A DNA stretch of 43,993 nucleotides, the filler included, from Catajapyx aquilonaris (lineage: Eukaryota): the NCBI GenBank assembly GCA_000934665.2. It is 2 parts of 2 records of this genome, joined end to end, with 100 filler letters (N's around TTAATTAATTAA, not from the genome) between each part and the next. Parts side by side here need not be neighbours in the genome. Positions count along the whole stretch, not along the records: positions 1 to 21,961 come from JYFJ02005940.1; 1 more part is not named here. One strand, given 5' to 3'. Under the pieces are notes generated by a model. The model had not been told where the DNA came from. It did not search any database and saw only the letters and a program-made list of their open reading frames with translations. Positions 1 through 42,409 of this stretch are shown here, piece by piece. Positions within the stretch are counted from its first letter, which is position 1, and the number at the start of each line of letters is the position of its first letter. A program made the position numbers and the translations under genes.

Positions 1-95
1 AGCCTTACCAAAGCACCACTGGGATGCCCCTGGCCTACTCCGTATGCGAGGAAGGTCAAAGGTGGTCATCCATCCACGCCTTCCAGTGTCAATGA
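1..95 (+). CDS. 3' end (last exon, partial) of type-B dual-CTLD/Sushi-Wonton-like gene (copy B0)
   Basis: Frame from nt 3 reads PYQSTTGMPLAYSVCEEGQRWSSIHAFQCQ* (stop 93-95); only 4 nt differ from the end of B2 exon 8. Confidence 0.9.
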   Translation, partial: PYQSTTGMPLAYSVCEEGQRWSSIHAFQCQ

Positions 96-1401
96 TTCCT
101 CAGCATAGTTACCGAGATAATGTGCTTCAAATGAAAGGTATAAAATATCCTGGCAGGTATGCGTCCCTCCACGCGACCTTACCTTTTCATTTCAATGGCG
201 GTGTTACCATGCAATTTAATTTCAATATATTTATGATGTCATTAGGTGTAGCATGGAATCGCCTAGGTCCTAGGCGATAGAAGTGTCTTAAGCTATATCC
301 GAAACATATGCTGGTACAATTGACATTTTTATGCTAATTATTTCGGTAACTATGCTGCGGAAAGCCTATACTTAAAATGATCGCATAGAACCCCACTTTC
401 ATTCCTCAAGGGACAGTACGATAAAATTCTTCACCCTAGTACCATAGTACATGTATAATATACAGTTGTAGTGTAAATATGAGGACCATGAATATGCGGG
501 ATCAGTCCAAGAAATACATATTCAGTAATAAATAATATATAAAAATCGTGTTATCATTTTTATTTGGACGCAATGCACTATCAGAAAATAACTTCGTAAG
601 AGGAGTTCTCTTTAGGCAACATAATTAAACAGACATCTGTGAACAAAATATGGTTTATAGGAAGTGTTATAGTATAACAAAAAAATTATTATGGACAGAA
701 ATATGTAAAAAATACATTACCCCTTTCATGTACACGGGTGCTTGATTTTTTAGTATTCGTTGCTGGAATTCTCAAACTACTGCAGCATTCTCAAAATATA
801 TCTGCATAATTTCTTATGAAGAACTCAGATTCCTCCATGTCGTTCCAACATGTATCTGGAAGACCTTTTGTACTCGACAGTAATAAGTGGAACGACAACA
901 GTTTGAAAGCAATATCATCTTTTGTGCCCATATGAGGAAACAGCTGGCTCATTTTAGTTTCCGGGGCGCTAATATGAGCTAATAATATTATGTAAGCCAT
1001 AAAAATGTTATGGGTATAGGCTACTGATACATATGTCATACAACAATATTATAGCTATATTTGGAATTTTTCCTCCAGAGGCTTTGCCTCGAGAAGGTTG
1101 TGTCAGCTACGGAATGTCTGGCCGAAACATTTCTGAACATATGGAATTAGGCCTATTGATTCAATAAGGCAAGTTAATGTCTCGTCATTTCGCAAACCTT
1201 TACAATTTATCGTTATATAATAAATTATTGACTGTCTTGGGCAGGTCTTGGGTTTTCCATTTTAGCGTCATTTTTCCCTGGGTGAATTTGTAATGCGTAC
1301 CTTATACTAATACATTATGAGTCACATCCTGCCGCAAACATCCTCCTTTAGACCACTGATTTCTCCAATATTCTCACCCTAAAGTGTTAGTCTACGTCGC
1401 T

Positions 1402-3474
1402 ATGGCCTTACATCTACATCTCTTTGCATCGCTCCTCGTCTGGACAGCAGTAGACGGTAACGTCTTGAACTGTCTAGAAACTGTCGGAGCACCAAAATCG
1501 TAATGTTAATTTTTTTACAGCAGTGGGATAATGTAAACTATTTGAAAAGGAACATAATAATTACGATTCACTGAGATGGATTGGTGCATGCGCCATCATT
1601 TGGCCCACTGTAATATTGGAGCACTTAGACAGCAATCGGCATCCAGGAACACATAGCAGTAACAGTCTTTAATAATTATATATCAAGTTTAGTTAATAAT
1701 ATGAGAGTCTAAAAACCTGCCGTGACCTGGCTGATTTATGTCAAGGCCGAAATATAAATTCCTGGATCTTCATATCGTCACCTGATTTGATGTCAAATAC
1801 AGCTTTCAAAATTTCTAGATGTAGACAATGGGCAATATCTCGATTCGCAGCGGATTATGTTGCAACTATTACTCCAGACAAGGAAAACGTCTCTTCCTTT
1901 TTGATAATGCAATTACTACAGTAGTATTTTCTCTACAGGTAGTAGAGAGATATTTTTGTGTGGTGAACGGTGATAGAATAACCTGAGTAATTTTTACAAA
2001 TTAATTTTCCCAGGTTTTCAGTGTCCTGCAGACTGGATATCTCCACCAGATGATGTGTCATGTTACAAGCTGGTTGATGTTCCCATGAATTGGTACGATG
2101 CTCGTGATTACTGTCAATCACTAGGCGGACACCTCCTGACTCTAAATTCCCGAAATCAGATTGTAAGAAAATTAATACATTGTAATAGCTTATAATATAC
2201 GAAGATTTTGAATTCAGAGTAATGTTGTCGTTCTACGTCGTACGTAGGAGTGGCTTCTCTCGATGATAAGAACACGTCCTCTTTCACGATACTCGTGGGT
2301 AGGACTGTCAATAAGTGGAAATGGGACATTGTCATGGGTCGATGGCAGCAGCCCTGACAATCACCTTCTGTAAGACCACAAAATAGAAAACCACTTATTT
2401 GTTTCCGTTGCCTTCCGAAAAAAGTATGACCAACAAATAACTATTCCAGGGTACAGAGAAAGAATAACGCAGAACGTAGGAGAATCACTCTGGACTGTGT
2501 CAGGTATTACAGAGATTCCCAAGAGATTGAAGATGTAGACTGCACAGTATATGGACTCAATCCTGCTTGTGAAAAAGGTAAATCTGAATGGTATTCTTGC
2601 AACCATTTTTTATTACATAATAACCCAGGTAGCACAAAAGTTGGGCCAATATTGGGCGAATGTCGGCCCAATAGCTTGAATCTTGGGCCAACATTGGTCC
2701 AATATTGGCCCAACTTTTTGTGCTACCTGGGAAACACTTTGACACATCATTATAATTTTCTTATTACGCTAGTGTGAAGAAAGGATTAAAAATATTGTTT
2801 TCCGGTGCAATCGAATAATTTTATATTTTTATTGCTTTCTACACTTTACTTTTTTTCCAGTAAAACGGAGAAATGCGAAATTGAATATTACATTCATATT
2901 GATATTGTATCTTTGCAGAAATCGAACGTGGGTCTGCTTGTCCTAGATTATGGCTGAAGCGACGTGGTTCTATGAGCTGCTATTTACTTAAAGTGGGTAC
3001 TCATTTGTTCTGGAACAAAGCACGTGAACAATGTCAAGCCCGAGGAGGTGACCTGGTAGTGATTAATTCCCAAGAAGAAAAGGTAACGCACGTTATTTAC
3101 TGAGCCATTTCCATTTCCACACATAACTGGCATTATCCGCATTTGTTTGTAAACAGGAATGGCTAAGTGCATCAATGGGAAAGTTCAGGCTTAGTCAAGT
3201 CTGGGTTGGTCTAAGCAACGAAGAGGAAGGCTGGAGATGGACAGATGGAACCATCCTTGATACGAACATATTGTTAGGAAACTGTTTTGATATTAATGAA
3301 GTGATCGAATGTAATTAACCAGCTATTCTTTGCAGGTCGTGGAGAAAAGGAAGTCCCCACGAACTGAATATTGAAGATGAATTTCTCTTACTTACTGACA
3401 GTGGAGAGTTCCACTTCACATCTTACCAACACAAAATTTCTTCCATATGTGAAATAAGAGGCCAATCTGTTTAG
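1402..3474 (+). CDS. Type-A secreted dual C-type lectin-like protein, copy A1, truncated (lacks C-terminal six-Cys domain), ~290 aa; could be an incipient pseudogene
   Basis: Exons 1402-1456 (signal peptide MALHLHLFASLLVWTAVDG), 2014-2162 (CPADW..SCYK..WYDARDYCQSLGGHL), 2248-2369 (WVGL..WVDGS), 2450-2577 (DC..DC..CEK), 2919-3082, 3157-3272, 3336-3474. All introns GT-AG and in frame. The exon-7 donor seen in A3 is deleted, so reading runs on to TAG at 3472-3474; exon 8 is deleted after 10 nt. Confidence 0.75.
2624..2731. mobile_element. 108-bp MITE (CCCAG...CTGGG termini, apparent 2-bp AA TSD; CMC/EnSpm-like)
   Basis: ~32-bp TIRs cccaggtagcacaaaagttgggccaatattgg / ccaatattggcccaactttttgtgctacctggg; lies in A1 intron 4 and is absent from the paralogous A3 intron 4. 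Confidence 0.8.
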
Positions 3475-4773
3475 ATGGATTCTCCACACTGCATTTCAAA
3501 GAAATTTGTAATGAGATTAATTTAGCTGAGAAGCATTCCCAATTTTAATATAATCAGCGTCTAATGAACACCTTTGCACTCCTCATGCACCACCATACAC
3601 CAACGGACGGACAACTTGAGTAATGAGAATAGACTATTATATTATACTCTTCAAGTGAGTAATGGATGGGAATGGACCGGAATAATATTGATGGTATTGT
3701 TCCATCAGCGACATTTGATTGGTCCAGATCTTATAAATGTGTTAAGCCAAGCAACTTCCTTAAACTTGTCATGCTGTAATATTATCCGCAAGTCATAATT
3801 ATCACAAATTTTCAATGTTTACTGAAGCATTTCCTTCTCATTTCTCCGCTAACCACTAAGATTTAATAGCGGATGATGTAACTACAGTAAGTAAGAGTCA
3901 GATTTTCCATATTTAATAATAATGTTAATGACGAGTTTAAGTAATTGTATCGGCACAAGGGTGAGACTAATAAACACAGGACATAATCCCACATTGACGA
4001 AAATAAAAATGCTGTACAGACACTGGCAATTTCATTTGATATATGATTATATGGAACATAATATTATAGTGTAGTAGTATACAGATTAAAGTAACACGTG
4101 ATCTAATATTTCCATCAAGGAAAAACGTCACATTTGCTACATCTCTAGCCTGACATTGAAATGGCAACAATTTCGCAATTTCTCGACTTTGAAGATGAAG
4201 GTCTAGACTCTACTGATCTAGAGGAACCAATTTATTCTGAACAGGGAAAATACCGATCAATTTATTTCTTTCGCGTGACTGGCTATATCCGTCTGAATCC
4301 ATTGAAATTAGCATCATTGACTATCAACACAAACATCAGTGTTTTTACCATCTAATCAAGATTACCGTGGGCACCCTGCATTGAATTTCATCCACAGGTG
4401 ACGATTGTTGCTTGAAACCAATTGTCTTATCTTGTTGCTATTATCCCAGGAGCGGCTAAATTAATAGTATTTCCCACCAACTAACACTTATGCTGGTCTG
4501 TACGATATATAACGATTTAAATAAAAACAAATAACAGCCCTAACCTGACATGATGGGAGTCACCTCAATAGTTCTTATTTGACATCGAATAAGCCAACCT
4601 AAAATCCCACAAATGACAGCAAAAGGTTCCCAGCAGCATTTTAAAGCATTTATGTCCTCAGGAAATATCCAACTGAAAATGCGACACAATAAGAGTCACA
4701 TCCGGCCGCAAACATCCTCCTCTAGACCACTGATTTCTCCAATATTCTAACCCTAGTGTTAGTCAACGACGCC

Positions 4774-7112
4774 ATGAATTCATATCTACATTTATTTGCA
4801 TCGCTCCTCGTCTGGACATCGTCTGTAGATGGTACCGTCTAGTGTACTGTAGAGAAATCTATCGCAGTAATGGAATCATATTTTTGCAGCAGTGGGGCAA
4901 TGTAAACTAGTTTAAATGCAACATTATTATGATTCACTGAGACTGAATTAAATTTGTGCATGCACCATCATTAGGCCCTCTATAATATCGCAGCACTTGA
5001 AAGGCTTGAATCATCATTGCATATTAGAGCCGTATCAGTGTAGTGAATAATATGAGAGTCTAAAATTTGGCATGACCTGGCTGTATTTATGACAAGATTA
5101 AACACTTGTAAATTCCTGTACCTTCATATTGTAACCTGGTTTGATTTTAAATCAGGAATATTGGTAACTTCGCAAATTCCAGATGATTCATTTCACAGTT
5201 CTTACACCAGACTGGGACTTCCTTTTTTAGCATGACATTACGATCGTATTTTTATAGGCTATTGTATACACTGACATAAATATTATTTTGCGTGGTGAGA
5301 ATGACCTGAGTAATAACAAATTCATTTTTCCAGGTGTTCGGTGTCCTACAGACTGGATATCTCCACCAGATGATGTGTCATGTTACAAGCTGGTTGATAT
5401 TCTCATGAATTGGTACGATGCTCGTGATTACTGTCAATCACTAGGCGGACATCTCCTGACTCTTGATTCCATAAAACAGATTGTGAGAAAAAATATACAC
5501 TGTAATATTTCCCAGAAAACTTTGAATACAGAGTGATGTTATCATTCTATAGAAGTGGATTACCTCTATGATGAAAACAAGACCTATTTCACGCTACTCG
5601 TGGATGGGACTTTACAGGAGTGAAAACGGGACATTGTCATGGGCAGATGGAAGCAGCCCTGACGATCACATCTTGTAAGACCAAATTAGAGAAAATCATT
5701 GCACATGTTGTTCATTGCCTTGCGAAGCATGACCAGCGAATCACTATTACAGGGTACATAAAGTGAATAACCAAGAACATCCGAAAAGCACACTGGACTG
5801 TGCATTGTATATCAGATATTCTCATGAGATTGAAGATGGAGACTGTACATTATATGAAGTAAATTCTGTATGTGAAAAAGGTAAATCTCTATGGGACATT
5901 GCCAATGGCATGATAAATATTGCGATATATAATTTTCATCTCCTTACACGATGGGTACACCGGATTTACAGTATTGTTTTCCTATTATTAAGAAGTTTAT
6001 TGGACTTTCCAACAATTAAGGTTCCCAAGCCCTTACACGAAACTTCTAAAGCAATACGTAAACTTCTTAATAGTATTGTTTTCCTGTGGTTGAAGAATGC
6101 TTTTTTACTACTTTTGACATGGACGTAGAGAAATGCTAAATACGCATGCATTGTGACTCATCCTTGCAGAAATCGGAAGTGGGTCTGCTTGTCCTAAATT
6201 GTGGCTGAAGCGTCCTGATTCTTCGAGCTGCTATTTTCTTAAATCGCATAATCATTTCAAATGGAAAGAAGCACGTGAACATTGTCAAACCGAAGGAGGT
6301 GACTTGGTACAGATTACTTCAAAAGAAGAAAAGGTATGTTACATCATTATTTTGCACTGCCCTTTCCACCTCCTCCTATAGACCTCCTCCACAACATACT
6401 GATAGTCCTCTTATTCATTTACAGGAATGGCTGAGTGGAGCAATGGAAACGTACAGGCTAGTTAAAATCTGGATTGGTCTTAGTAACAAAGAGGAAGTGT
6501 GGAGATGGACAGATGGAACCAATCTTGATACAGGCATACTGTTAGGAAACTATGTGGTGATATAATTAACAACGTAATCAAACCCAATTAACCAACTTTG
6601 ATTTTTTGCAGGTCGTGGAGAAAGGGAAGTCCACGAGAACGGAGCACTAAAGACGAATATTTTCTCTACATTAGTGCCGACGGAAAGCTTTCCAGCACAT
6701 CTTATCAACACGAATTTAGTTCCATCTGTCAAATTAGTAGAGGTGTGTATTCGTTCTAGATGTGTTTGTCAAACTGATTCTCAAAAGATATGATCGTTAT
6801 GGGACTAATTATGCTGATACACAGTCCAAATTCAATGCTCATAGAATCTGATTATAATCATTTGCACTTCATCATGCAGCACCATACACGATCGCTTGTG
6901 AAGCTCCACCAGTGTCTGAGCACCAAGAAGTGCTCTGCTTCAATCCAAATGGAAGAAACGTCCAGTGTCACCACAACCTTCACGTTCCCTTGAGTGCTGC
7001 AGCGTACAAGTGCAAGGAGCCATACCAGAGCACAACGGGATTTCCTTATGCCTTCTCATATTGCAAGTCTGATCAAAAATGGGAAGCTGTTCCAGCCTTC
7101 CAGTGTCACTGA
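4774..7112 (+). CDS. Type-A secreted dual CTLD + six-Cys Sushi/Wonton-like protein, copy A2, 366 aa
   Basis: Exons 4774-4831 (MNSYLHLFASLLVWTSSVDG), 5334-5482, 5553-5674, 5753-5880, 6170-6333, 6425-6540, 6612-6742, 6880-7112; 1101 nt, open throughout, GT-AG introns, same phases as paralogues. Confidence 0.9.
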
Positions 7113-8097
7113 TGGGGTTCCATTTTGAAACGACAGGGAAATATTACATTTTAAATAATTTCACTTAAAATTTCCTTTGCCAGTTCACAGACTCTAGGAG
7201 AGATGATTCACTTCGACCTAACATTAGAAAATACTGCTAACCTATGTAACTTCTTACAATAAGCAGCTAAATTTCTAAGATTGACATTTTAATTGGCTTA
7301 CTTTGTACAAATGAAATTTTGATTGGTCCAAATCGGAAATATGGGATTTTAAAACCAAAATATAACTGACTAAAACCCTGCTGAAGCAACACGACTTGTT
7401 GTTGTAATTTTTCGCAAGTCATATGTCACTTCCTTTCATTGCTTATACGTTAGCATATCTTTTTCCCTTTTTCCTCCAGTAAAACCGCTAATATCGTAAG
7501 TTGTGTATCGACAGAGTTGTTATGGCTCACTGTATATCCGGCGGTCACATAGTGACTCTAATCTTTGATAATAAAATAAAGCTGTTTTTTTTTTTGCTAA
7601 AATGCGTAAATTGTGTATTGCGCACATTATTTTTACAAAGTTCATAGAATCATAATATTCTCGCTATCTGTACCTTTTCCACGTGATTTGTTTATCGAAA
7701 GACATTGTAAAATATTTTATTATTCAAACGCAACATAACCCTATAATAATTATGCCTCACAAGCATTACTCCGTACTGAACACCAATGGATCTTTCCACC
7801 CATGCACATAATATTGACAATTTTCAGGTGGCCAGGCTTGACCAAATGCTCAGTTATAATGATTCGCATGTCATATCCCCTACTCCCAGCGCCTTTTTGT
7901 AGCATAGTCTACTTCTCTTTTTCCTTCCGGACATGGCTAATATTTGCCGTGAGACACGGAACGACATCCTTTTTGTGAGTCGCCTTATCTTCTGCGGTCA
8001 CAGAGTGACTGGACTTGTTGATAGAAAAGTAGAGCTCTACTACATTAATTGCTAAAACTTTGGCTCGCATTGTGCGCATTATTATACTCAGTGCGTC

Positions 8098-9633
8098 ATG
8101 GAATCATATCCGTGGCTGTGCCTTTTCGTCATTATTTTCGTCGTGATCCATTGTAAGTGAAAAATACATATTTTTATTCTTTATGCTTTTTATTATACTT
8201 TATTTATTACTTTATTTTTTATGATATACTTTATGCTTTTTATTATGCTACCTTGTAGCATGCTAATTCGGTTAAAAATTCGAGTTTTAAAATGTTAATT
8301 CTAATCTAGTGCTCAATCAGGAATATATGTCAGATATTGAGCTTTTTATTCTCTCCAGACACTTCATGTGCTCAATGCCCCAATGATTGGACAACCCCAC
8401 CAGGTGAAACGTCTTGTTACAAATTTAATGTATTATACCTAACTCGTGATGAGGCTAACAAGTACTGTACTGTACACGGTGGACATCTCCTGGTCATTAA
8501 CTCCAAAAAGGAACAGGTAAGAGCAGTCTATTTGAATGGAACTATAAACAGTTTGTTGCATATAAAATTATTCCACTGACGTATTACTCTATTATAGAAA
8601 CTTTCTGGGTTGCTTGTTGTAAACAGTTACTCTCACAAGGTACTCTCAGGTTCAATATGTTATTTATAATCATAACCCCCCCCCCCTCCCCCAACAGTCC
8701 TCTATATAGGACGCTGGTAACAAATGGGTTGATAATGACTCTTTCATCAGAGCATGTAGCATTAATAATAATTTGCCTAGCACACATATTTCTCCTTACT
8801 AAACAGGAGTGGATCTTTTCAACTGCTCAGGGAATTTCACCGTTGCATTCCTGGTGGGTGGGCCTGAAGAGAGGCAACAATGGAACCTGGTCGTGGGATG
8901 ATGGGACCGAGTTTGATGACACTATCACGTAAGATGCACGACGTCAGACGAATGTTATATTTGAATGAGTAGGCCTACTGCAATATTAAACATATACTGT
9001 ACTTAGAGAGTGGGCGCCTGGCCACCCAGAGGACGGGATCTTCACTGAAGACTGCGCAACATTTGAAGTTGATGAATCTGCAGATATTTCTGACAAACTC
9101 TGCAGGTTTGGTATAGAATTCATTTGTGAAGCAGGTAATCGTGATAAACGTAATCTACAATAAGTGATAACATAAAAATTAGATAATTACAATGCCAAAT
9201 AAAAAGTGCATGTAGAAAACTATAATAGGAATAAACATAATATAATTATATTAGCATAATATAATATGCAAATTTAAAAAATTGAAATACCACAACATAT
9301 AAATAAAACTCTGGTTGCAGGTACGAGGTTGCTCGTATTCTGCATTATTATTGCATTGATTATAAAATTAGTCGTCTTGTTGTCAAATTTTGTTGATGCC
9401 AATTAGGAGAAAGCATTCGCTAGATCAATAATAATTATTAGTAATTCCTTCCAGAACGAGAAATCAACTCCCCCTGCCCTAATTATTGGCAAGGAAGAAT
9501 TAATTCAACAAGTTGTTATTTGTTGAATCTACAACATTCTGCAATATGGACTGAGGCTGTCAGTTACTGTCATGAGAGAAACGCATATCTGGTCATTATA
9601 AATTCCATCGAAGAAAAGGTAACTGTTTTAACA

Positions 9634-9714
<81 letters not shown>

Positions 9715-11216
9715 GCTGTTATAGACATCAAAATTCAGCACAGTTGGCTAATTCAGAAAATGTACAACTCAGGAGTGGCTGAAGGAAGCAATGGGAGCTT
9801 ACGGTTATATTATGAGGACATGGATAGGACTGAGTGACCAGCAGGAAGAAGGAGTCTGGAGATGGACCGATGGGACCATACTGGACACCAACATCGTGTG
9901 AGCAGAAAATAGTATTTGTTGTGTCCATGCACAGTGCGAGGGGGTGGGGTCTTATTGATGAGACCATATGCGTAGCGATTTGTTGGCCTGGCTGATAAAA
10001 AATTTCAGTATAATCAAGAAAAAAGATGCTGAAAATTTTTCATTGTAATCGTAATGGCAGTTACAAGGTCGGTGGGACCACACTTAATAACCTGGACCAC
10101 ATTCGCCCGATAGTCCCGCGGCTTAATAATGCCGATTCTTGACCGAACCAAAAGAGAGTTTAAAATACAGTATTTTTTTTCGTGATCCAGACACCATAAT
10201 TATGGAGTATTTTAAGGGTTGGAGCCACCTCCAAAGGTTCCTGGTTAATTTTTTTTTCAGAGCCGCGCAAAGTTTTTAAAAATGAGCAAGGTAAAATTGC
10301 GTTTGACCTCTGACGTTCCTCGATCACGAAAACCTAGGAAATGTCACCAGAATGACCACCGCAGCCCAACAGGATACAAACCGAAACCACGCAATTTTCA
10401 CTTACGCATTTTTTTAAAAACTTTTCACGGCGGTAAAAAATTAAGAAGAAACCTTTGGAGGTGGCTCCAACCTTCAAAATACTCCATATGGGATATAGAT
10501 CACGAAAATAAATTTAATATTCTTTTGGCTCGAAGTGCATAACACTTTCAATATATCAATAAGCCGCCGTACTAGAATTCTTAGCCGTTCTTATAGTCTT
10601 GAAACCAAGACAAACTGCTGGAGAGGGTAACTTATACAGTGTGTTGTGGCCTATATCATCTTGGTTGAGGATTCTAAGACTCATACATGCACACGTGACT
10701 ACTCGAGTGGCAAACCCATGTGGAGTAAAGCTGAAGTGATTGATTATTTTGTTTCCCTGACCAATTCTTCAGGTCTTGGAGAAGCGGATATCCAAAAGGA
10801 AGACGTGGTGAGACAGATGTCGCTCTTCTTTCTCCTAATAAACAGTACAAGAGCTTGGCCAATTTCATCGGCATCTTCTCAATATGTGAAATAACCGGAG
10901 GTAAGTGACCCAGCATTGAAGTCATTCCTATTCCAAAATAATGTCCACTGTCCAACACATCCACGAACTTGTTTCAGAGCCTTACAAGGTGGCATGTGGT
11001 GCCCCACCACCCCCTTCCGACACCCAGGAGGTGGGGTGCCACACCCCCGATGGAGGTGCCATGGTCCAGTGCCATGACGTCCTCCACGTCAGAGGTAGTG
11101 CTGCGGTGTACCGGTGCAAAGAACCTTTCCAAAGCACCACTGGGATGCCCCTGGCCTATTCCGTATGCGAGGAGGATCAACAGTGGTCATCCATCCACGC
11201 CTTCCAGTGTTTGTGA
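8098..11216 (+). CDS. Type-B secreted dual CTLD + six-Cys Sushi/Wonton-like protein, copy B1, 372 aa
   Basis: Exons 8098-8152 (MESYPWLCLFVIIFVVIH), 8359-8516, 8807-8928 (WWVGL..WDDGT), 9007-9134 (WAPGHPE..EDC..ISDKLC..FICE), 9455-9618, 9773-9897, 10773-10900, 10978-11216; 1119 nt, open, GT-AG. Confidence 0.9.
9638..9714. repeat. (AAT)n microsatellite in B1 intron 5
   Basis: About 25 perfect TAA units. Confidence 0.97.
10111..10574. mobile_element. ~460-bp diverged MITE with long imperfect TIRs in B1 intron 6
   Basis: tatggagtattttaagggttggagccacctccaaaggtt (10201-10239) is the near reverse complement of aacctttggaggtggctccaaccttcaaaatactccata (10450-10488); complementarity continues outward to tagtcccgcggctta / taagccgccgtacta with TA at both ends. 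Confidence 0.7.
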
Positions 11217-11832
11217 CGGTCACTCGTCACATTAAAATTTATATGCAGTATTATTGATACGTAATTATGCTGAGGACCACTAATATGTGGCATCAATGGG
11301 GTCCTAGCCATGGTTTGGGATTTGGGAAATTTGTACACAAATAGTTCAACCATACATATGTAAACACGCATTTCACCATTTTTCAGCACCAAAATGTCAA
11401 TCCTCGATAAATTATCGCGGGTTAAAAAGTCACTCTCAAATTATTATTGGTGGAAAAGGGGGGCGTTACCTAAGTGGCGCATTCCCACTCCTGCCTATTG
11501 CGGGTTACGTCATACGTCGTTTACATAATTATGAGCATCGCTGAGAGTTGAATTCAATAATTGTTTGAGGCGAAAGTAACAATCGCATGCACTGGCTATG
11601 GCGGTCGTTCGATTAGTTGGCTAGGCCCTGTTGGTAGGGTCGCCAAAAAAGCTAACTAACAAAGAAACAAGCAGCCCGGGTGCGTACCTCCCTTGCACCA
11701 CTAGCTGTTTTTCCGCGTGACATCAGAGGACAGTGCGATACTAATAAGTACGGAACAAGAAATAACGATCTGACGTCATCGTTTCTTCCATTGCTACTTT
11801 TTGTTGACACTGTTTACTCATATTGTTCTGTG

Positions 11833-11878
11833 CAGGGATGGAAAAAGAACCGCTTCTTCGGTTCTTTTTCCATCCCTG
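11833..11878. mobile_element. 46-bp minimal hAT-like element
   Basis: Perfect 20-bp TIRs cagggatggaaaaagaaccg / cggttctttttccatccctg, 6-nt spacer, flanked by a perfect 8-bp direct repeat gttctgtg (11825-11832, 11879-11886). CAGGGATG terminus and 8-bp TSD are hAT hallmarks. Confidence 0.85.
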
Positions 11879-12594
11879 GTTCTGTGAGGGTATTTCCATG
11901 GAAAACTTGATGACGCCAGATAGTCCTCTAATTTTATATGATATTTGATCGATCATAGAACGAAAACTGAACGATGGCTACCACATATTTGGGACAATGC
12001 TGTGAAGTTATGAATGAATTAGTGAATAGAACAAAAACTAATCCGTATTTCTTCAAACAAAAAACACCAAAATTCATTTAAATATTAGTATATTACATGA
12101 TTTTTTATATGGATTTTAAAAATGTAGGCTAGGACCCCATACAAGAGATACCGGTACATATTAATTAGTTTAAAAAATACAAAATAAAAATAATGTTCAT
12201 CTTTTGTCTTTGATTTGGATGAAAAACTGTCTCTGATGAATGTCGCAGGAGATGTCTTTAGGAAAAATCATTGGACAGGCATCTTTGAACAGTGTGGTTT
12301 AGAGAAGAGTTACAGTAAAACAACAAAATTAATATGTTAGAGAAATATATAAAATACACAATACGCCGTATAGAAATTAATGGCCCACCCCTTTTTTGCA
12401 CTCTAATACATGATTTTTAAAAAAAATATCCACGTGGAACTTCTCAAACCAGTTATGAAACATATTTGCATAATTTGCTAGGAATGACTCAGATTCCTCC
12501 AGGTAATTCCAGATAAACAACATGTAGCCTATCTGGACGACGTCTTGGCCGCCAGAGAAACGATAATCGTTTCAAAGCAAAGTAAATACATTTA

Positions 12595-12742
12595 GGGCCA
12601 GTTGCACCGGCCTCAGTATAACTTAGAACCTCGGGTATAACAAGAATTGCCATGGCAATTATTGTTGGTCAACAATGATTGCTATGGCAATTCTTGTTAT
12701 ACCCGAGGTTCTAAGTTATACTGAGGCCGGTGCAACTGGTGC
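12595..12742. mobile_element. ~148-bp almost fully palindromic MITE (PIF/Harbinger-like termini)
   Basis: ccagttgcaccggcctcagtataacttagaacctcgggtataacaagaattgccat is mirrored by atggcaattcttgttatacccgaggttctaagttatactgaggccggtgcaactgg; flanks TTA / TAA; absent from the homologous region upstream of A1 (~1130). Confidence 0.8.
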
Positions 12743-13017
12743 TAACATAATGATAGAATTAGGGCTGTTGATTCAATCAGGTGAGTAACTTAGTTAATGT
12801 CCGGTGATGCCTCCAGCCTTTAATTTTATTGTTATCCTTATTATTGACTGGCTTGGTTTTTCCATTTTGACGTCACTTTTCTTCGCTTGGATTTGTAATG
12901 CGTACCTTATACTAATACATACGCGTATGCGTCACATCCTGCCGCAAACATCCTCCTTTATCAGTACCACTAATTTCGCCAATAATCTCAACGTAAAGTG
13001 TTATAGTCTACGTCGCT

Positions 13018-15359
13018 ATGGCCTTATTTATACATCTCTTTGCATCGCTCCTCGCCTGGACAGCAGTGGACGGTAACATCTTGAACTGTAATGTCTAGAA
13101 ACCTGTCGCAGTACCAAAATTGTAACGTTAATTTTTACAGCAGTGGGAGCAGAGTGGAAGAATGTAAACTGTTTGAAAAGGAACACAATAATTACGATTA
13201 ACTGAGATTGAAAATAATTAAATTGGTGTATGCGCCATCATTAGGCCCACAGTAATATTAGAGCACTTGAAAGGCTTCATCATAATGCAATCAGCATTGC
13301 ACACATAGCAGTATCATCATCAGTATTTAATAAATTTTATACGTATCAAGTTTAATTCATAATATATGAGTCTAATACCCGAACGTGACCTGCTGGCTGA
13401 TATTTATGTCCGGATTGATATATAAATCCCTGCACTTAATGTCGTCATTGGTTTGATTTGAAAGATATTTCCTATTTTCCATTCACATGTGATTATTTTC
13501 ACAGCTCCCAGACCGGACAAGAATAAATGAGCTTCCTCTTTGATTCTGATGTTATTTTCTGCATTTGACACTGGCACGTTTTGTGGGGTGAATGATGACA
13601 GAATGACCAGAGTAATTTTTACAAATTCATTTCTCCAGGTTTTCAGTGTCCTGTAGACTGGATATCTCCACCAGATGATGTGTCGTGTTACAAGCTGGTT
13701 GATATTCCCATGAATTGGTACGATGCTCGTGATTACTGTCAATCACAAGGCGGACACCTCCTGACCCTTAATTCACGACAACAGATTGTAAGAAAAACGA
13801 ATACATTGTACTGTAATATGTATTTTCCTAAAACTTTGAATTATAAGAGTAAAATAATGTTATCATTATTTACGTCGGATGTAGGACTGGCTTCTCTCGA
13901 TGATAAGAACACGTCCCCTTTCACGCTACTCGTGGGTAGGACTGTCAATAAGTGGAAATGGGACATTGTCATGGGTCGATGGCAGCAGCCCTGACGATCA
14001 CCTTCTGTAAGACCACAAAATAGAAAAACACTGATTTGTTTCCGTTGCCTAGCGAAAAAAGTATGACCAACAAAATAACTATTCTAGGGTACAGAGAAAG
14101 AATAACGCAGAACGTAGGAGAATCACTCCGGACTGTGTCAGGTATTTCGGAGATTCCCAAGAGATTGAAGATGTAGACTGCACAGTATATGGACTCAATC
14201 CTGCATGTGAAAAAGGTAAATTGGAATGGTATTCTTGCAACCATTGCTAATACAGTAGTAAAATAACATGATAAATACTATGACACATCTTTATAATATT
14301 TTCCTATTACTCTAATGTGAACAAGATAATGTGAACATTATTGTTTTCCTGTGCTTTTTTCACTTTACTTTTGACGAAGACAATAAAACGGAGAAAATAA
14401 TACGAAAACGAATAATACATTCATAGTGATATCTTATCATTGCAGAAATCGAAAGTGGGGGTGCTTGTCCTAAATTGTGGCTGAAGCGTAAGGGTTCTTC
14501 GAGCTGCTATTTTTTTAGAGTGCAGATTCTTTTGTTCTGGAACGAAGCACGTGAACACTGTCAAGCCGAAGGAGGTGATTTGGTAACGATTAATTCCCAA
14601 GAAGAAAAGGTAAAGCACGTTATTTTCTGAGCCCTTTCCACCTCCACAATAACTGCCATAATCCGAATTACAGGAATGGCTGAGTAGATCAATGGGAAAG
14701 TTCAGGCTTAGTCAAGTCTGGGTTGGTCTAAGCAACGAAGAGGAAGGCTGGAGATGGACAGATGGAACCATCCTTGATACGAGCATATTGTTAGGAAACT
14801 AAGTTTTGATATTAATGAAGTGATCGAATGTAATTAACCAGCTATTCTTTGCAGGTCGTGGAGAAAAGGAAGTCCCCACGAACGGAATATTGAAGATGAA
14901 TTTCTCTTACTTACTGACAGTGGACGGTTCATCTTCACATCTTACCAACACGAAATTGCTTCCATATGTGAAATAAGAAGAGGTGAGTTGTTGGCTAATC
15001 TGTTAAGATGGATTTGTCACGCTGCCTTTTAAACACTCTCTAATGAGACTAATATTTCGCTGAGACAGCATTCCAAATTATAATAGAATCAGCGTCTAAT
15101 GAGCACCTTTGCACTTCCTTATTCAGCACCATACACGATCGCTTGTGATGCTCCACCAGTGTCGGAGAACCAAAGAGTGAAGTGCATCACACCAAATGGA
15201 ACAGAAGTCCAGTGTGACGACAACCTTCACCTTTATGGGGCTACTGCCACTTACGCATGCAAGGAACCGTACCAGAGCACAACCGGATTGCCTTACGCCT
15301 ACTCGTTTTGCAACTATGATCAGAAATGGGAAACTATACCTGCCTTCAAGTGTCAATGA
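13018..15359 (+). CDS. Type-A secreted dual CTLD + six-Cys Sushi/Wonton-like protein, copy A3, 364 aa
   Basis: Exons 13018-13072 (MALFIHLFASLLAWTAVDG), 13639-13787, 13885-14006, 14088-14215, 14446-14609, 14674-14789, 14855-14982, 15127-15359; 1095 nt, open, GT-AG; closest paralogue of A1. Confidence 0.9.
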
Positions 15360-15773
15360 CTGACCCCCAATTTAAAAAGGAGTAGAAAACTGCATTTTGA
15401 ATATGGTTAATGTACCAAAAATTAAATATAGACAAGTTTCATTGCATCATCTCATTATGATTACTCGCGTATGTGCCTGACATGCAATCCTAATCAACCA
15501 GTTTCATGCAACTCTAACGGTGTTTATCGTCTTTATGAAGACGTCTTTAAAAGGAAGACAAAAATATATTATTGTCATACCTGCAACAAATTGGTTAAGT
15601 CATTCGATGCCATTTTCAGTCACAGCATGAAGATATATGATTCAAATCAACCTAGTATTAAAAGCTAATATGACCCATAACCTAAGTAACTGATTAAAAC
15701 AAGCAGCTTAATTGCTAAAATCGACATTTTAATTGGATCATTTTGTACACGTGAATTGTTATTTGTCGGTAGA

Positions 15774-16056
15774 GGGGGGTGTAGATGGCAGAGATGGTAA
15801 CGTCTCGGCCTGCTGAGTGAAAGGCCCCAGGTTTGAGCCCCCGCCTGTGGGGAGCTCGCTTTCACCTGCGTCAGGAGGGTCTCTAACCTGCACCTTGGAG
15901 GTGTCTGCTGGCAACCTAACCTCCTGGGGGACTGCACATGGCCCAACTTGAGATATTGCACCTGCACCCGTGTCCCCTCGCCGAAAATCCCCATCCTTAC
16001 CACCTAATGTCCTTGATTCGCTGCACTGGAGATTGAAGGAAACAAGTATTCAATAC
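15774..16056 (+). mobile_element. tRNA-derived SINE (diverged; 3' end approximate)
   Basis: G-run start, A-box-like tggcagagatgg (15786-15797) and degenerate B-box ggtttgagccc (15830-15840) at tRNA spacing, followed by a GC-rich body in AT-rich surroundings; no clear TSD. Confidence 0.55.
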
Positions 16057-16950
16057 TAGAAAACTGATGGTGGTGTGCCACCCCCCCCNCCCCCCCCCCC
16101 CAAAGAAAAGGCCCCTGGAGAGTTGCAGGCCTATCACGGGGTAAAATAAACACAAAAAATGCAAATTATTTGCCGGTAGATGCTACAAATACCGGTGCTA
16201 GAATTCTCCCATCAACGGACGGATAACTTGTACCGTATAATGAGTATAGACTTTAAGTTCGTCATTTTACCGAAGTCAAACATTGATGGGAATGGACCGG
16301 AATATTGATGGTAGTGTTTCATCAGCACACTTTGATTGGACCAGATCTGAAAGATATACCAAGAAACCTCATTAAACGTGTCATGCTGTGATGATCCACA
16401 AGTCATATCACTATAGTTTCAATTGTTTACTGGAGCATTGCCTTCTTCTTTTCCTCCAGAAAAACCACCAATATTTATAGTGGGGGACGTAACTACAGAC
16501 TCTCATCGACAGACGTCCCATAATCAAATAATGGTAATGGAGAGATTTTAAGTAATTGTATTGATTGAATGAAGGCACAAAGGTGGGGCGAAAGAAGACA
16601 GGACATTATCCCACGTTGTCATAATACAGAATGATGTACAGAAACTGTCAATTTCATGTAATATGTGGAACATATTATACTGTAGTATAGGCCTACTGAT
16701 TAAAATAGCTCTTGATCTAATTCTTTTCCTTGAAGGAAAATATCACACCTGCTACATAATGCTGACCTTGTATTGTAACACTTTTCCGATTTGGAAGGTC
16801 TATACGGTAGACTCTATAAAATCCAATGCGGGACATGAAAACCACGCAATATTTTTTTGGTGTGGCTATATCCGCCTGAATCCTGTGAAAGTGGCACAAC
16901 TATATTTATATTAATACAAAGAAACATTAGTCATCAGAGCAAAAAAGATA

Positions 16951-16992
16951 TGGGCGGATGGAACCAGTCTTGATATGAGCATATACTGTAAG
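16951..16992 (+). pseudogene. Orphan relic of a lectin exon-6 3' end
   Basis: tgg gcg gat gga acc agt ctt gat atg agc ata = WADGTSLDMSI followed by a gtaag donor; matches WTDGTNLDTGIL|gt (A2) and WTDGTILDTSIL|gt (A3); no other exons adjacent. Confidence 0.6.
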
Positions 16993-17612
16993 AAAACAAT
17001 GGCACCGTGCTGTTAACTACACAAATGAAGCCTATTTTGCAAAAACCATAATAGTAGTCAAAAATGGTCGAAAATGAGTCACGACCACCACATCACAGTT
17101 CCCAACCTTGCGCTCATAATGGTTCAATAGCAAGATCAATCCCTATAAATTAAATATTGTGGCAGTATAGATGCCAACTGAATTCCTCAAGTGGACGGCT
17201 AACTTGTGTAAATAGAGTATACGGTATGCTTCAAGTGTGTCATATTACTGGAATACAATAGGACTACTGATGGTAATGGACTGGAATATATTAAGGTAGT
17301 GTTACATCAGTCGCTTTTTATAGGTCCAGATCTGAAAGTTCGAACGGCACTCCTTCCGGTCAGTCAAAGGTATTATTTCCTTGCCTGGAAGAATATTCTT
17401 TTTCAGTCAGAATAATTCGAAAATCATATCCCCCTATTTTCAGTGCTTACAGAATCATTTCCTTTTCCTTTTTCCTCCAGCAAAACCGTCGTTATTTATC
17501 GTGAGAGACGTATAACTACAGACTGGCCCTGACACATTCTAACTTCTGCGGTCAGAGAGTGGCTGGGCTCGTTGATAAAAAGTGTATTGCACATATTATT
17601 TTACAGAGTGCC

Positions 17613-19499
17613 ATGGATTCGCGTACATACCAGTGCCTTTTCGTCATTGTTTTCACAGTCATACGTTGTAAGTTTTGATTTTTTTTCTTACACAGGTATT
17701 ATACAGGTAGGCCTACAGCATTGTGACTTGCTAATTCGGTTAAAAATTAACGTATTTTGAAATGTTCATTATGGTCTATACGGCTAAATCAGGAAAATAA
17801 GTAGAAGATAATAGCTATTATTTTCCAGATGCTTCAGGTGCGCAATGTCCCAATGACTGGACATCTCCACCTGGCGACACGTCTTGTTACAAGTTTAATA
17901 GAGAGAAATTAACATCAGACAAGGCTAATGTGTACTGTCATGCACACGGTGGACATCTTCTGGTCATCAATTCCAAAAGAGAACAGGTAATTTGAGCCTA
18001 ATTATATGTGCTATCATATACGTATAATAAAAATCAGTTTCTGTTTTCTTACCACATTTTAATATTATAGGGGAGATCGGTGTCGGTTGTAACACTTTAG
18101 TCTGGATATTTTAATTCAGTTACATATGCATTTAGGCAAAGGTTTATGACATGGTGGAAATAAAACAACATTCCTCTATGTAAAATTAACATTATAAAAT
18201 CTTAAGAATAAAAATTGATAGATTTATAAATATTTTTCCAAGGCAAGGCAGAATGTTACAACCGACCCCACAGGGGTGTTGTAACAGAGGGCGGGATCGA
18301 TTGTGACAATGTAATATGGAAGAACAGATTGCACCCACTCATTTTCTCGGCTATTGTCTTTATAGCCTACTTGATCCACATTGCTCTTTATCTCTAGATA
18401 CACTGGAATTTACTCAGCAGAATAGTATTGCAAGATAATAGATTTTTTTATTCCTTACAAACTTCTTCTTTCATACCTTATGAAAGAGTAAAATATTATT
18501 AGCCTATATAAATGCCACCTTTCGCAACAGTCGGTCCGACAGAAATAGGCCCAAAATATTGCCAACAGAAAAATGACACTTTCAATGGAACATACCACAC
18601 GAAACCCCACATAAAAATCCAGTGCCTCAAAAACATTTCTACGTACTAAACAGGAATGGATCTCTTCAACTGCGCGTGACATCTCATTTGTGAGTCCCTG
18701 GTGGGTAGGCCTAAGGAGAGACAACAATGGAACATGGTCGTGGGATGACGGTACAGAGTTTGACGACACAATCACGTGAGAAGTGTGACGAGGGATGATT
18801 TCAAAGAATATGCAATGTAAAAAAAACCCTTTTCAGACAATGGGCTCCTGGCTATCCAAATGATGACGTAATAAGCGAAGACTGCGCAACAATAGAAGTT
18901 GGTGGACATGGAGATATTGCTGACCATTACTGCTGGCTGGGTTTCGAATTCATTTGTGAAGCAGGTAATCTTGATGAATTTATTCAAAATAAGTAAATAA
19001 CAGATTAGATAATAATTAGGGCCTACCAAATAAGAGGTGAATGTAAAAAACCAAATGAAAGTTACAAGAGTAATTGAGACATACCCAGAATAAATAACAT
19101 GCGAAATAACATAAATAATATCCTGGTTGCAGATATTCGGCATTGATTTCATTGATTATAAAACTCACTGCATGACTATGACAATTGGCTGCTTACGTTT
19201 TAGATGAACAACCGACCTAATTGCCACATCGTGATGTTGTCAAATTAACGGTACCAAAATTTGACAACCCCATAATTGGTACCGTCAATGGTCAATCAAT
19301 AGAAAGCACTCAAAAAATTATTTTCTTGCAGACTTTGAAATCAACTCCATCTGCCCATATTATTGGGAGAAGAGAATTAATTCAACAAGCTGTTATTTGT
19401 TGAATAGGCAAAATTTTGCAAGCTGGTATGCGGCTCACAAATATTGCCAAATTAGAGGTGCACATCTGGTCATTATCAGTTCCATCGAGGAAAAGGTAC

Positions 19500-19560
<61 letters not shown>

Positions 19561-20971
19561 ATGTCCAACGATGAAGTAGGTCAATTTTGAAAATTGACCT
19601 CGAAATAAAGTTATGAGCAGGGTATGCCCATAACCGTAAAGTGTAAACGGATGATTTTGATCAGTTTTGATCCACACAGTTGTGGGACACATCCTTCTAC
19701 TCACGCTATCTACACATACTCATCATTATATACAAAATATGAAACTATGGAGTCTCCCGCAAATTGACATCGGCAACCTGGAGTGACGAAAACCCTAGTA
19801 ACGTATCACTAGCTGCAGTGCTACTCCTTACCGACTACTTAAGGAAGTGACCCTGCTGGAAGAGACTCAGAGACACGAGGCTCTGGCGACCTTGATGAAA
19901 GTCCAACCGGGAAAAAATTGTCAACAACGTTCGTCCAACAATGCAGTGCAGCCATCCGTGGTCAAAAATGATCACTACTTTCACTACACACATTAACATG
20001 ACATGAGTGTCTCATTACTGTATGGTGTGCGATAACTTGTTTACTCCTACATTGGTTTAGGAGTGGCTCAAAGAAGCAGTAGAAGTCTATGGTTATCAGA
20101 CGACTTGGATAGGACTGAGTGACCATGAGGAAGAAGGAATCTGGAGATGGACCGATGGGACCAGTCTGGACACCAACATCATGTGAGTTGCCTTTGTTGC
20201 ATCCACACAGTGGCGGATTGATGGGGGGGGGCACTTGAGACCTGAAGTGAGGGACGCCATAAATAAGATGTGGATTTGAGGGTTTTATATCTTTTTCTGT
20301 ATAGTCTATCTGTGCCCTTAAATTGTTTGTTTCTTGCGTCCACTCCTTCCTTCATTCCTTCCTACTCCTTGTCACTATATTTATGTACGTATCATATTAT
20401 TGTAAATAATCATAGTACTGTAGTATTAGACAATCCATGTGCTTTTTTCCCCTTAATGCCTGCCTAAAAGGTAGCCTATACGTAATACCGGTGTATCCAT
20501 TGTCTCCCTGATTTACGTATTTTTCTCTATCTCGTATTTTTCAGGTCGTGGAAAGAGGGGTATCCAAATGGCAGACGCGGTGAGCCAGATGTCGCTCTTC
20601 TTTCTTCTAAGAAACAATACATGAGCTTGGCAAATTTCTTCGACATCAATTCAATATGTGAAATAACCGGAGGTAAAGTGACCCAGCGTTATTGAAACTA
20701 TCCCCCTGCAATGTGGACTGTGGCTGTTTCAGAGCCATACAAGGTGGCCTGCACTGCCCCACCACCCCCTTCCGACACCCAGGAGGTGAGGTGCCACTCC
20801 CCCGATGGAGGTGCCATGGTCCGGTGCCACGACGTCCTCCACGTCAGAGGGAGTGCTGCGGTGTACCGGTGCAAGGAGCCTTACCAAAGCACCACTGGGA
20901 TGCCCCTGGCCTACTCCGTATGCGAGGAGGATCAACAGTGGTCATCCATCCACGCCTTCCAGTGTCAATGA
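17613..20971 (+). CDS. Type-B secreted dual CTLD + six-Cys Sushi/Wonton-like protein, copy B2, 371 aa
   Basis: Exons 17613-17667 (MDSRTYQCLFVIVFTVIR), 17829-17986, 18654-18775, 18837-18964 (WAPGYPN..EDC..IADHYC..FICE), 19332-19495, 20061-20182, 20545-20672, 20733-20971; 1116 nt, open, GT-AG. Confidence 0.9.
18069..18310. mobile_element. Probable DNA-transposon end fragment in B2 intron 2
   Basis: Starts taggggagatcggtgtcggttgtaaca; internal inverted copy tgttacaaccgac (~18254) and further ttgtaaca/ttgtgaca motifs; this intron is much longer than in B1. Right end not resolved. Confidence 0.4.
19500..19559. repeat. (AGT)20 microsatellite in B2 intron 5
   Basis: Perfect AGT run starting 5 nt into the intron. 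Confidence 0.97.
19678..19940 (+). mobile_element. Degraded 3' fragment of an RTE-like LINE
   Basis: Across frameshifts reads VVGHILL...KLW...HRQPG...LATLMK...EKIVNNVRP, resembling from memory the GHILR...LW...G-RP...L...MEDR..W C-terminus of RTE-clade ORFs. Confidence 0.4.
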
Positions 20972-21556
20972 TTTTATTTTTATCATTGTAATTGTCGCCA
21001 ATTAATCGATTCTGTTTTATTGATTACAAGAGAGCCACCAAAAATGTGTCAATTCAAGAAAAACCTATATTCAGTAATATCACATAATAATCTATGCGCA
21101 ATAGTGTTACGTGTGAAATAGTTTCGGTTATAATACTCCCTAATGTAATAGCCAAGGACGCCTTCGATTAATCGGACACACTACTTGTAGGCCTACTGAT
21201 AATGAAAATTTTATTTTGCACTTATTCATTCTACATTTTATTATGATAAACTTGATTTCAACATACGATGTAATGTTATAGACTACGTAATGGACAGCCA
21301 GCAGAGGGAAGGGAACAGTTAGGAAGGGAAAGGGAATGAGCCTGCCACTAGCCACGAACGACTATTTATTCAACATCTTTCTACAGTAGGTTGTCTCCTA
21401 TTTGCGTCATCAGGAAAATATCGAGTGGCAAACACCAATGGGGCTGCATGTGACTCATCGCTATGCGAATAGTCTATCTGGCCGCAAGCATCCTCCTCTT
21501 GACCACAGATTTCGCAAATAATCTGACTCTTACGGTTAGTGTCAGTCAAGTAGGAC

Positions 21557-21961
21557 ATGGCCTCATATCTACATATTTTTGCATCCCTCCTCTTCTGGAC
21601 AGCAACACAAGGTACCATCTATAGTAATGCCCGAAAAACCCGCTCTCTTGGGAAATATATATTTTTCTCCAAACGTATTTACTTTTTTAACAGCATTTTG
21701 GCTTTCTATGCACACTATAAAAACCTTATTAGTGTATAACCATATATGTTCATAACAGTGAAATTGTTAATATAAAAAGCAGAATCGTAAATGAGTCTCT
21801 TACAGCGGACATGAATATTAGCTTTTTCTTTAATTTTTATAATACAGTATTATCGCATTGTACGCTGAAACGTGTTTGGTGAATGATGATAGGATGAACT
21901 GAGTTATTTTGACACATTGATTTTCCAGGTTTTCAATGTCCAACAGACTGGATATCTCCAC
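21557..21961 (+). CDS. 5' part of a further type-A lectin gene (copy A4), cut by the gap
   Basis: Exon 1 21557-21611 (MASYLHIFASLLFWTATQG|gtacc); exon 2 from 21929 (GFQCPTDWISP) runs into Ns. Confidence 0.85.
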
Positions 21962-22061
21962 NNNNNNNNNNNNNNNNNNNNNNNNNNNNNNNNNNNNNNN
22001 NNNNNTTAATTAATTAANNNNNNNNNNNNNNNNNNNNNNNNNNNNNNNNNNNNNNNNNNNN
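21962..22061. other. Artificial contig-joining spacer
   Basis: Exactly 44 N + TTAATTAATTAA + 44 N = 100 nt; the 12-mer places stops in all six frames, as used in concatenation linkers. Confidence 0.95.
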
Positions 22062-30295: not shown

Positions 30296-30410
30296 TGCGG
30301 TTGGACCACAGGAGCTCATCTTGAAGGCTCTCTTGGCTGCTGCTGCTTAGCGGGTCTCCCAACCCAACGACCTACCCCCTTGTACTCCACTTGCTACTGG
30401 AGAAGAAGAA

Positions 30411-32585: not shown

Positions 32586-32662
<77 letters not shown>

Positions 32663-41600: not shown

Positions 41601-42409
41601 CATTCTGCCTGCATCAACGTACTTCTCCGTCATGAACTGCACCGAAGAAACAGGTACGCAGCTCTTAAAACCCCCAGCAACTCTCTGGGCCATGCATTAT
41701 TATTAGTTCTTCTGGCAGCCACGGCTCGACCGATCCCCGGTTTCCTGATGGAAGCAGCACTACAGGACAATGCCAATGCCAGCCTGCCTCTGGACTCTCC
41801 CCCATACCCGATGGTGGACATTTGCACGATCGAGCTTCCCGAAGACGTCAACGTCCTCCCAACAAAGCTTATGCCAACTTTCCCTGGAGGAAGACTTTTC
41901 CCTGGATCTAACGACGGAGGCGAGTCTCCAGAGGACGACCCTGAAGCATCATCCTCTGAGAGGTCACAAGATGACCGACAGGTAAGCACATATTGAAGCC
42001 CTTAAATTTTTGGAATTATTATGACTGGATCGCATTGCAGGGTTTAAAGAAGCGTGTGAACCAGAGGCATCTTCGTCACCGTCTGAACCAAGAGCTGCTT
42101 CGTCGAGGAGGAAGAGGACGAATTCCAATGACCCTTCCGCCGGTGGAAACCCCAGTGGAGAGTGAGACCCTGTTCACCTTCCATGATGTCGATTACACGA
42201 ACAGGATGGGCCGAGACCACGAGGGAGATGACGACAAGAGCTCCTGGAGGAGCATCCAAGGCGGTTCGGACTCCGACACATCCAGCGGACAGCAGGAGGA
42301 GCAGGTCCAACCATCGGACACGAAGGAGACAGAAGACGAAGGAACCATTTTCATGCAGAAAATATACGTTAGCCCAGCAACCGGATCGCGTCTGAAGAGC
42401 AGCAGATAA
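30411..42409 (+). CDS. ana: Anachronism-like secreted protein (TGF-beta propeptide-like domain, no mature cystine-knot domain), 515 aa
   Basis: Exons 30411-30628 (signal peptide MAMLKVLVVLTCVLASSWC), 37785-37993, 39507-39649, 39857-40004, 41456-41653, 41719-41981, 42041-42409; 1548 nt, in frame, GT-AG. Prodomain-type motifs RMKEIKNQVLSSVG..P, VAAKLRLFK, KIRVSVY, KLVDTKML..WVSFDIQRA..W..NFGLVVEV, PMVDI. Motif order matches Drosophila Ana as recalled (LRLYK, IRVTV, MLSS..WVEIDV, IEVHD..YF...C). Confidence 0.85.
32586..32661. repeat. (TAT)n microsatellite in ana intron 1
   Basis: About 25 perfect TAT units. Confidence 0.97.
33948..34378. mobile_element. 431-bp Tc1/mariner-type MITE in ana intron 1
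   Basis: TA|cagggtgttcatgaacaac ... gttgttcatgaacaccctg|TA; imperfect TIRs extend ~100 bp (to ccgcctc / gaggcgg). Confidence 0.9.

Follow-up and report, generated by a model that had tools for sequence, protein, structure and literature searches.

A tandem array of predicted secreted CTLD-CTLD-Sushi proteins occupies a contig of Catajapyx aquilonaris

Introduction

What do the repeated lectin-like genes on a short contig of Catajapyx aquilonaris encode, and what might their products do? The question arises from a window of 43,993 nucleotides (the whole stretch of DNA analysed here, filler included) taken from assembly GCA_000934665.2. A first-pass annotation had described in it a tandem array of genes for secreted proteins with two C-type lectin-like domains (CTLDs) and a six-cysteine last domain. 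With moderate confidence, we conclude that the array is a lineage-specific family in which copies are still being gained and lost. Its members would be secreted, soluble proteins of ~40 kDa with the order CTLD1-CTLD2-Sushi, the last being a Sushi (CCP) module. They would serve extracellular binding or bridging, with humoral immunity as the likeliest setting.

Expansions of lectin-like genes have been described in other arthropods. PMC6070988 and PMC9954269 divide insect CTLD proteins into CTL-S (single-CTLD), IML (dual-CTLD immulectin) and CTL-X, and PMC6389355 and PMC4987106 count C-type lectins among the largest of the families that have expanded in springtails. Taken on its own, the array would be one more lineage-specific lectin-like expansion. 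The arrangement of its domains is what sets it apart, and the argument below proceeds from the genes to the domains, and from there to the history and possible role of the family.

Seven copies on one contig

Seven copies lie on one strand (+) in the order B0, A1, A2, B1, A3, B2, A4, where A and B denote two subfamilies. The same seven paralogues in the same order had been proposed in the first pass, and both tblastn and exon models bore them out. With the exon open reading frames (ORFs) of A2 and B1 as tblastn queries, matches to the array are confined to positions 3-21960, with zero in 22062-43993. Between these two regions, positions 21962-22061 read directly from the sequence as N44-TTAATTAATTAA-N44, which we read as a six-frame-stop linker that joins two contigs and is not genomic sequence. 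The array therefore occupies one entire contig, 1-21961, and the DNA at 22062-43993 is not its physical neighbour. This qualifies the earlier statement that the array runs off both ends of its block: B0 and A4 are indeed cut, but the right-hand end is the contig join, and the array fills the whole contig.

The exons of A2 were read by hand. For the other copies, exons were sought with AG/GT bounds in the required phase and scored against the A2 or B1 peptides. Four copies are intact eight-exon genes. A2 (4774-7112, 366 residues), whose hand-read model was then checked, has exons at 4774-4831, 5334-5482, 5553-5674, 5753-5880, 6170-6333, 6425-6540, 6612-6742 and 6880-7112. The other three come from exon models together with a Pfam Sushi match on exon 8. 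B1 (8098-11216, 372 residues) has exons at 8098-8152, 8359-8516, 8807-8928, 9007-9134, 9455-9618, 9773-9897, 10773-10900 and 10978-11216. The exons of A3 (13018-15359, 364 residues) are 13018-13072, 13639-13787, 13885-14006, 14088-14215, 14446-14609, 14674-14789, 14855-14982 and 15127-15359, and those of B2 (17613-20971, 371 residues) are 17613-17667, 17829-17986, 18654-18775, 18837-18964, 19332-19495, 20061-20182, 20545-20672 and 20733-20971.

The remaining three copies are incomplete. A1 (1402-3460, from exon models) lacks the last exon; its seven exons (1402-1456, 2014-2162, 2248-2369, 2450-2577, 2919-3082, 3157-3272 and 3336-3460) encode a signal peptide, CTLD1 and CTLD2, with no Sushi exon. 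Of B0 (1-95), recognised by tblastn and translation, the contig start has left only the 3' end of the last (Sushi) exon, which is B-type and consists here of the last 30 codons (3-92) and a TGA stop at 93-95. At the other end, A4 (21557-21961) is cut by the contig end: it retains exon 1 (21557-21611), which encodes the signal peptide, and 33 bases of exon 2, starting at 21929. A4 was placed by exon models and by blastn matches to the 5' regions of the other A copies, A1, A2 and A3.

GT-AG boundaries are found in all 34 modelled introns, A1's included, and the intron phases run 1,0,2,1,0,2,1 in every copy. An identical eight-exon phase structure had been claimed for the family. The phases stand, but eight exons are seen in four copies only and A1 has seven. 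In the four full copies the ORFs are intact, 28 of 28 splice sites are canonical, and the predicted proteins are 364-372 residues long. Protein identity is 88% between A1 and A3, 67% between A2 and either of these, 75% between B1 and B2, and 40-43% between A and B. Judged from the gene coordinates, intergenic spacers measure 0.6-2.3 kb.

Two lectin-like domains from a three-exon unit

Exons 2-4 encode CTLD1 and exons 5-7 encode CTLD2. By sequence profile, these domains belong to the C-type lectin-like domain superfamily (PF00059). Single exons give partial Lectin_C (PF00059) matches of 17-23 bits, and profiles of the corresponding exons reach further. The first-exon profile matched 173 solved CTLD sequences at E<=0.01, the best being the PLA2 receptor (1.3e-31), and the middle-exon profile matched 82 at the same threshold. 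The third-exon profile matches surfactant protein D at 4e-4, and DEC-205 is also among the solved CTLDs matched by these profiles. Among longer proteins, the first-exon profile gave 31 matches, led by fish mannose-receptor-like multi-CTLD proteins, and none of these carries a precomputed Pfam Sushi or Trypsin domain.

The two sets of exons align one to one and have the same phases, so CTLD2 is an old internal duplicate of CTLD1 that arose as a three-exon unit. CTLD1 has all six cysteines (C1-C4, C2-C3 and the N-terminal pair of the long form) in all five genes.

A six-cysteine Sushi module ends the protein

The last exon encodes a module of a different kind. Pfam Sushi (PF00084) scores above its cutoff of 20.7 bits in three of the four full last exons (A3 24.8, B1 23.3, B2 22.8). 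Together with the CTLD exon profiles, these matches uphold the secreted CTLD-CTLD-six-Cys architecture first proposed for the family. The invariant motif that had been reported for the last domain was likewise confirmed: CKEP[YF]QSTTGxPxAxSxC..DQxW....AFxC is unchanged in 4/4 full last exons, and B0 keeps it too, with GQxW in place of DQxW. Four cysteines (C20, C46, C63 and C77) and W69, the conserved tryptophan ahead of the last cysteine, are invariant in the four exons, as are the extra C6 and C31. From the range of the Pfam match, we infer that C20, C46, C63 and C77 are the canonical Sushi four, and that C6-C31 would be an added pair tethering an N-terminal extension.

Against 1.84 billion representatives, the Sushi profile gave seven matches at E<=0.001, of which the top three are PAN plus multi-Sushi proteins; none of the seven has a CTLD or trypsin domain. 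An Atlas feature search placed 21 of 30 matches in the Sushi set at 0.95, and among solved structures the profile found only weak matches to factor H (best E 0.083). A search among longer proteins found no relatives of the A2 Sushi exon, and none of 201 pattern matches to the profile in metagenome contigs was confirmed. Two large protein collections and the metagenome contigs thus held no close relative of the exon.

A soluble product without an enzyme

In each copy that has an exon 1, this exon encodes a short hydrophobic leader, that is, a signal peptide. After residue 25, the best 19-residue Kyte-Doolittle window scores 0.45-0.97 and never exceeds 1.0, and the stop (C-x-TGA) falls one codon past the final cysteine in 5/5 copies having the last exon. 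The protease motifs GDSGG and AAHC are absent from the six frames of the whole window. No Trypsin match was found by Pfam in the 61 other ORFs of at least 70 residues, in which it gave a TGF-beta propeptide and one weak match below cutoff, both on the second contig. At 0.6-2.3 kb (0.6-1.0 kb at the shortest), the spacers leave no room for undetected protease exons in the A2-B1 and B2-A4 gaps at least. As in the first-pass annotation, a soluble product is predicted; it has neither a membrane anchor nor a protease.

One tentative and rather unlikely alternative is that the array holds protease-less relatives of lectin-lectin-CCP-serine-protease (ModSP-type) genes, which would act as soluble competitors or adaptors of such proteases. 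Vertebrate MASPs have soluble competitors or adaptors of this kind in MAp44 and sMAP. That the protein ends exactly after the CCP suits this idea, as does the place of the CCP among the best-kept parts when A is compared with B. Against it, none of the proteins that the Sushi profile drew from the 1.84 billion representatives carries a CTLD or trypsin domain. More doubtfully still, we speculate that the copies might be enzyme-free CTLD-CTLD-CCP twins of lectin-headed ModSP-type proteases. Such twins would have ligands or docking sites in common with the proteases, and as competitors or adaptors would tune a one-chain 'lectin pathway', with A and B covering different targets. Alternatively, the unit might be a donor cassette for protease, kinase or receptor fusions via exon shuffling.

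Divergence, selection and turnover of the copies

A family of soluble binding proteins, as we favour, raises the question of which parts have changed. A and B are old subfamilies. The exons best kept between them are the Sushi exon (56-58% identity) and exon 6 (55-60%), and the worst kept are exon 4 (24-26%) and exon 7 (28-36%), both of which encode the long-loop half of a CTLD. The notion of variable heads and a constant tail fares unevenly. It fits the comparison between A and B, but fails within A, where the Sushi exon is 66% identical against 67% overall and the ratio of nonsynonymous to synonymous divergence (dN/dS) is 0.59-0.60. Within B the Sushi exon is 92% identical, but its synonymous divergence (dS) is also low, at 0.21 versus 0.49-0.87 in exons 2-5. 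This low dS, combined with a B0 tail that by blastn is 96% identical to that of B2 (and 93% to that of B1), points to homogenisation of the B 3' end by gene conversion, which would fit the high identity with low dS as well as constraint does.

Since dN/dS is 0.63 for A2-A3 and 0.36 for B1-B2, the intact copies are under purifying selection. Single exons vary around this. In exon 5 the ratio exceeds 1 (1.2-1.9) in all three A pairs, and in exon 4 it is 0.78-1.13, near 1 in two of the three; with 42-54 codons per exon, these values are only suggestive.

Loss is visible in A1. By blastn, 2833-3600 matches 14352-15136 and 3598-4142 matches 16210-16757. Homology with A3 thus stops at 3600 in A1 and 15136 in A3, nine bases into exon 8, and resumes at 16210 in A3, ~1.1 kb further on, from which we conclude that the Sushi exon of A1 has been deleted. 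At the junction (3591-3600, +; from blastn and the sequence) ~9 bases of exon 8 are left, the acceptor AG has disappeared, and what follows is homologous to the DNA beyond the 3' end of A3. The exon-7 donor has become GC, and the frame ends four codons into intron 7. With a dS of only 0.08 from A3 (dN/dS 0.90) and these lesions, A1 is a recent duplicate that is either decaying or now encoding a Sushi-less dual-CTLD protein.

Could the whole array be in this state? A truncated A1 with a dN/dS of 0.90 against A3, on a short contig whose two ends both fall within copies, would suit an array made up mostly of dead DNA, or one in which faulty assembly has multiplied a smaller number of real genes. 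We regard this as very improbable in view of the four copies with eight open exons, their 28/28 canonical splice sites and dN/dS of 0.36-0.63, and protein differences between copies of 12-60%, far past assembly error.

The order of the copies bears on another idea, that A and B are obligate heterodimer partners whose interleaving keeps them co-expressed. The order mostly alternates (B0, A1, A2, B1, A3, B2, A4) and both subfamilies have been kept intact. However, A1 adjoins A2, the copies share one strand and have separate upstream regions of 0.6-2.3 kb, and the odd free cysteine occurs in B1 only. Moreover, blastn similarity between the B-to-A spacers reaches no further than ~260 bases ahead of the A start codons, so the interleaving did not come about by copying a B-A or A-B pair as a block. 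Obligate pairing is therefore improbable.

The DNA around and within the genes carries further traces. The A copies share 3' flanking segments at 71-75% identity (7203-7328 with 15637-15767, and 3598-4142 with 16210-16757), and the duplications therefore took in 3' flanking DNA. Just upstream of the start codon, a block of ~85-120 bases is kept in 4/4 A copies (~1310-1401, 4690-4773, 12930-13017 and 21470-21556); its first element is an AP-1-like heptamer, which reads TGAGTCA in A1 and TGACTCA in A4 and is degenerate in the other two. This block is probably the core promoter plus 5' leader. Self-complementary palindromes of 108-342 bases lie in the B1-A3 spacer (12592-12745), A1 intron 4 (2624-2731) and B1 intron 6 (10172-10513), and these three may be small hairpin-type mobile elements. 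Intron 5 holds perfect trinucleotide microsatellites whose units differ between copies: (TAA)25.7 at 9638-9714 in B1 and (AGT)20 at 19500-19559 in B2.

What the proteins might do

We suggest that the members of the family work outside the cell, in binding or bridging. Ligands would attach to two non-canonical CTLD surfaces with no need of the classical calcium-sugar site, and change would be fastest in the long-loop exon of CTLD1 and the first exon of CTLD2. Docking with other proteins would fall to the Sushi module. The setting is most likely humoral immunity, whether in recognition, in opsonisation or in controlling a protease cascade, by analogy with most tandemly expanded soluble arthropod CTLD proteins.

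Several observations weigh against this proposal. Classical C-type lectins bind calcium and sugar through E/Q-P-N/D and WND residues, and alignment with surfactant protein D finds the two together in 0 of 10 CTLDs. At the EPN position stand HPE, YPN, NNA, NNQ, SPH, SPR or YPK, and at the WND position ISD, IAD, IED, FTS, STS or SLA. CTLD2 has its N-terminal pair and C1/C4, and lacks both C2 and C3 in 5/5 genes. The label 'lectin', carried over from the first description, is weakened accordingly. By sequence, the domains are CTLDs and not classical calcium-dependent sugar binders. With neither the canonical residues nor the C2-C3 disulfide, the sequence does not imply recognition of microbial carbohydrates. 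Two further points concern the module proposed for docking: the A2 last exon has no Pfam match of any kind, and an AlphaFold2 model of the Sushi exon from a four-row alignment has a mean pLDDT of 51.9, too poor for a fold search. The gene models are purely computational, and the immune setting is proposed by analogy. As an immune signal, kappaB-like GGGRNNYYYY was tried and set aside, since 32 matches against 29.1 expected is no enrichment.

Some of these points would also suit a non-immune extracellular role (cuticle or matrix, reproduction, or a digestive or secretory-gland product) for CTLDs that do not bind sugar. All 10 CTLDs are non-canonical, the kappaB-like count gives no immune-type promoter signal, and insect CTL-X proteins are mainly tied to adhesion and development as PMC9954269 presents them. 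Rapid turnover of copies and exons with high dN/dS, by contrast, are commoner in defence or conflict genes, though not exclusive to them. We consider a non-immune role unlikely overall, about on a par with the protease-less relatives discussed above, and continue to favour binding or bridging proteins in a humoral setting.

The second contig

The DNA at 22062-43993 has features of its own. An ORF at 41431-41703 (+) matches the TGF-beta propeptide (PF00688) at 26.3 bits, just above cutoff, and on this match the second contig carries a putative TGF-beta-family ligand gene; a word search found no relatives of the ORF. Another ORF, at 30351-30758 (+), begins with a leader resembling a signal peptide, continues with an acidic stretch and has no Pfam match. 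A perfect trinucleotide microsatellite, (TAT)25, lies at 32586-32660.

Comparison with known systems

By its predicted domains, the array family straddles IML and CTL-X. Insect immulectins resemble it in having a signal peptide and two tandem CTLDs, in being soluble, and in recent tandem duplication (PMC6070988, PMC9954269). As outlined in those sources, however, immulectins end after CTLD2, whereas the array family adds a C-terminal Sushi/CCP module. An immulectin has two CTLDs and nothing else; here a Sushi exon follows CTLD2 in four of the five assessable copies, and only A1 fits. The array family also differs from immulectins in its CTLDs, with canonical sugar-binding residues in 0/10 and a CTLD2 that lacks the C2-C3 disulfide.

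Drosophila Furrowed, Tribolium CTL15 and the vertebrate selectins also combine a CTLD with CCP/Sushi modules in an extracellular protein (PMC9954269). In the form described there, a single CTLD is combined with many CCPs and a membrane anchor, in contrast to two CTLDs, one CCP and no hydrophobic segment in the array family. CTL-X proteins of the selectin or Furrowed type are marked by an anchor and multiple CCPs, and the copies here have a single Sushi exon and a best hydrophobicity window of 0.45-0.97.

Limulus factor C is alike in that its CTLD(s) are followed directly by a CCP. Proteases of the ModSP or factor C type carry a C-terminal trypsin-like domain, whereas the array family has none: the stop comes one codon past the last Sushi cysteine in 5/5 copies, and GDSGG and AAHC are missing from all six frames.

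The G3 region of lecticans such as aggrecan and versican offers a parallel of another sort, with a CTLD and then one CCP ending a secreted protein and serving protein-protein binding. Lecticans, however, are giant proteoglycans with EGF modules and a single CTLD, and there is no sign of common descent with the array family. Snake-venom snaclecs share with it a CTLD fold that lacks the calcium/sugar site, and likewise form fast-evolving tandem families. They differ in being single-CTLD chains that form loop-swapped heterodimers and have no CCP, against two CTLDs and a CCP here.

Among the titles and abstracts returned by literature searches, none describes a secreted CTLD-CTLD-CCP family, which is weak evidence that the architecture is unpublished. 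If expressed, the array family would add a distinct architecture to the soluble-lectin repertoire of arthropods, in which a pair of non-canonical CTLDs is joined to one six-cysteine CCP.

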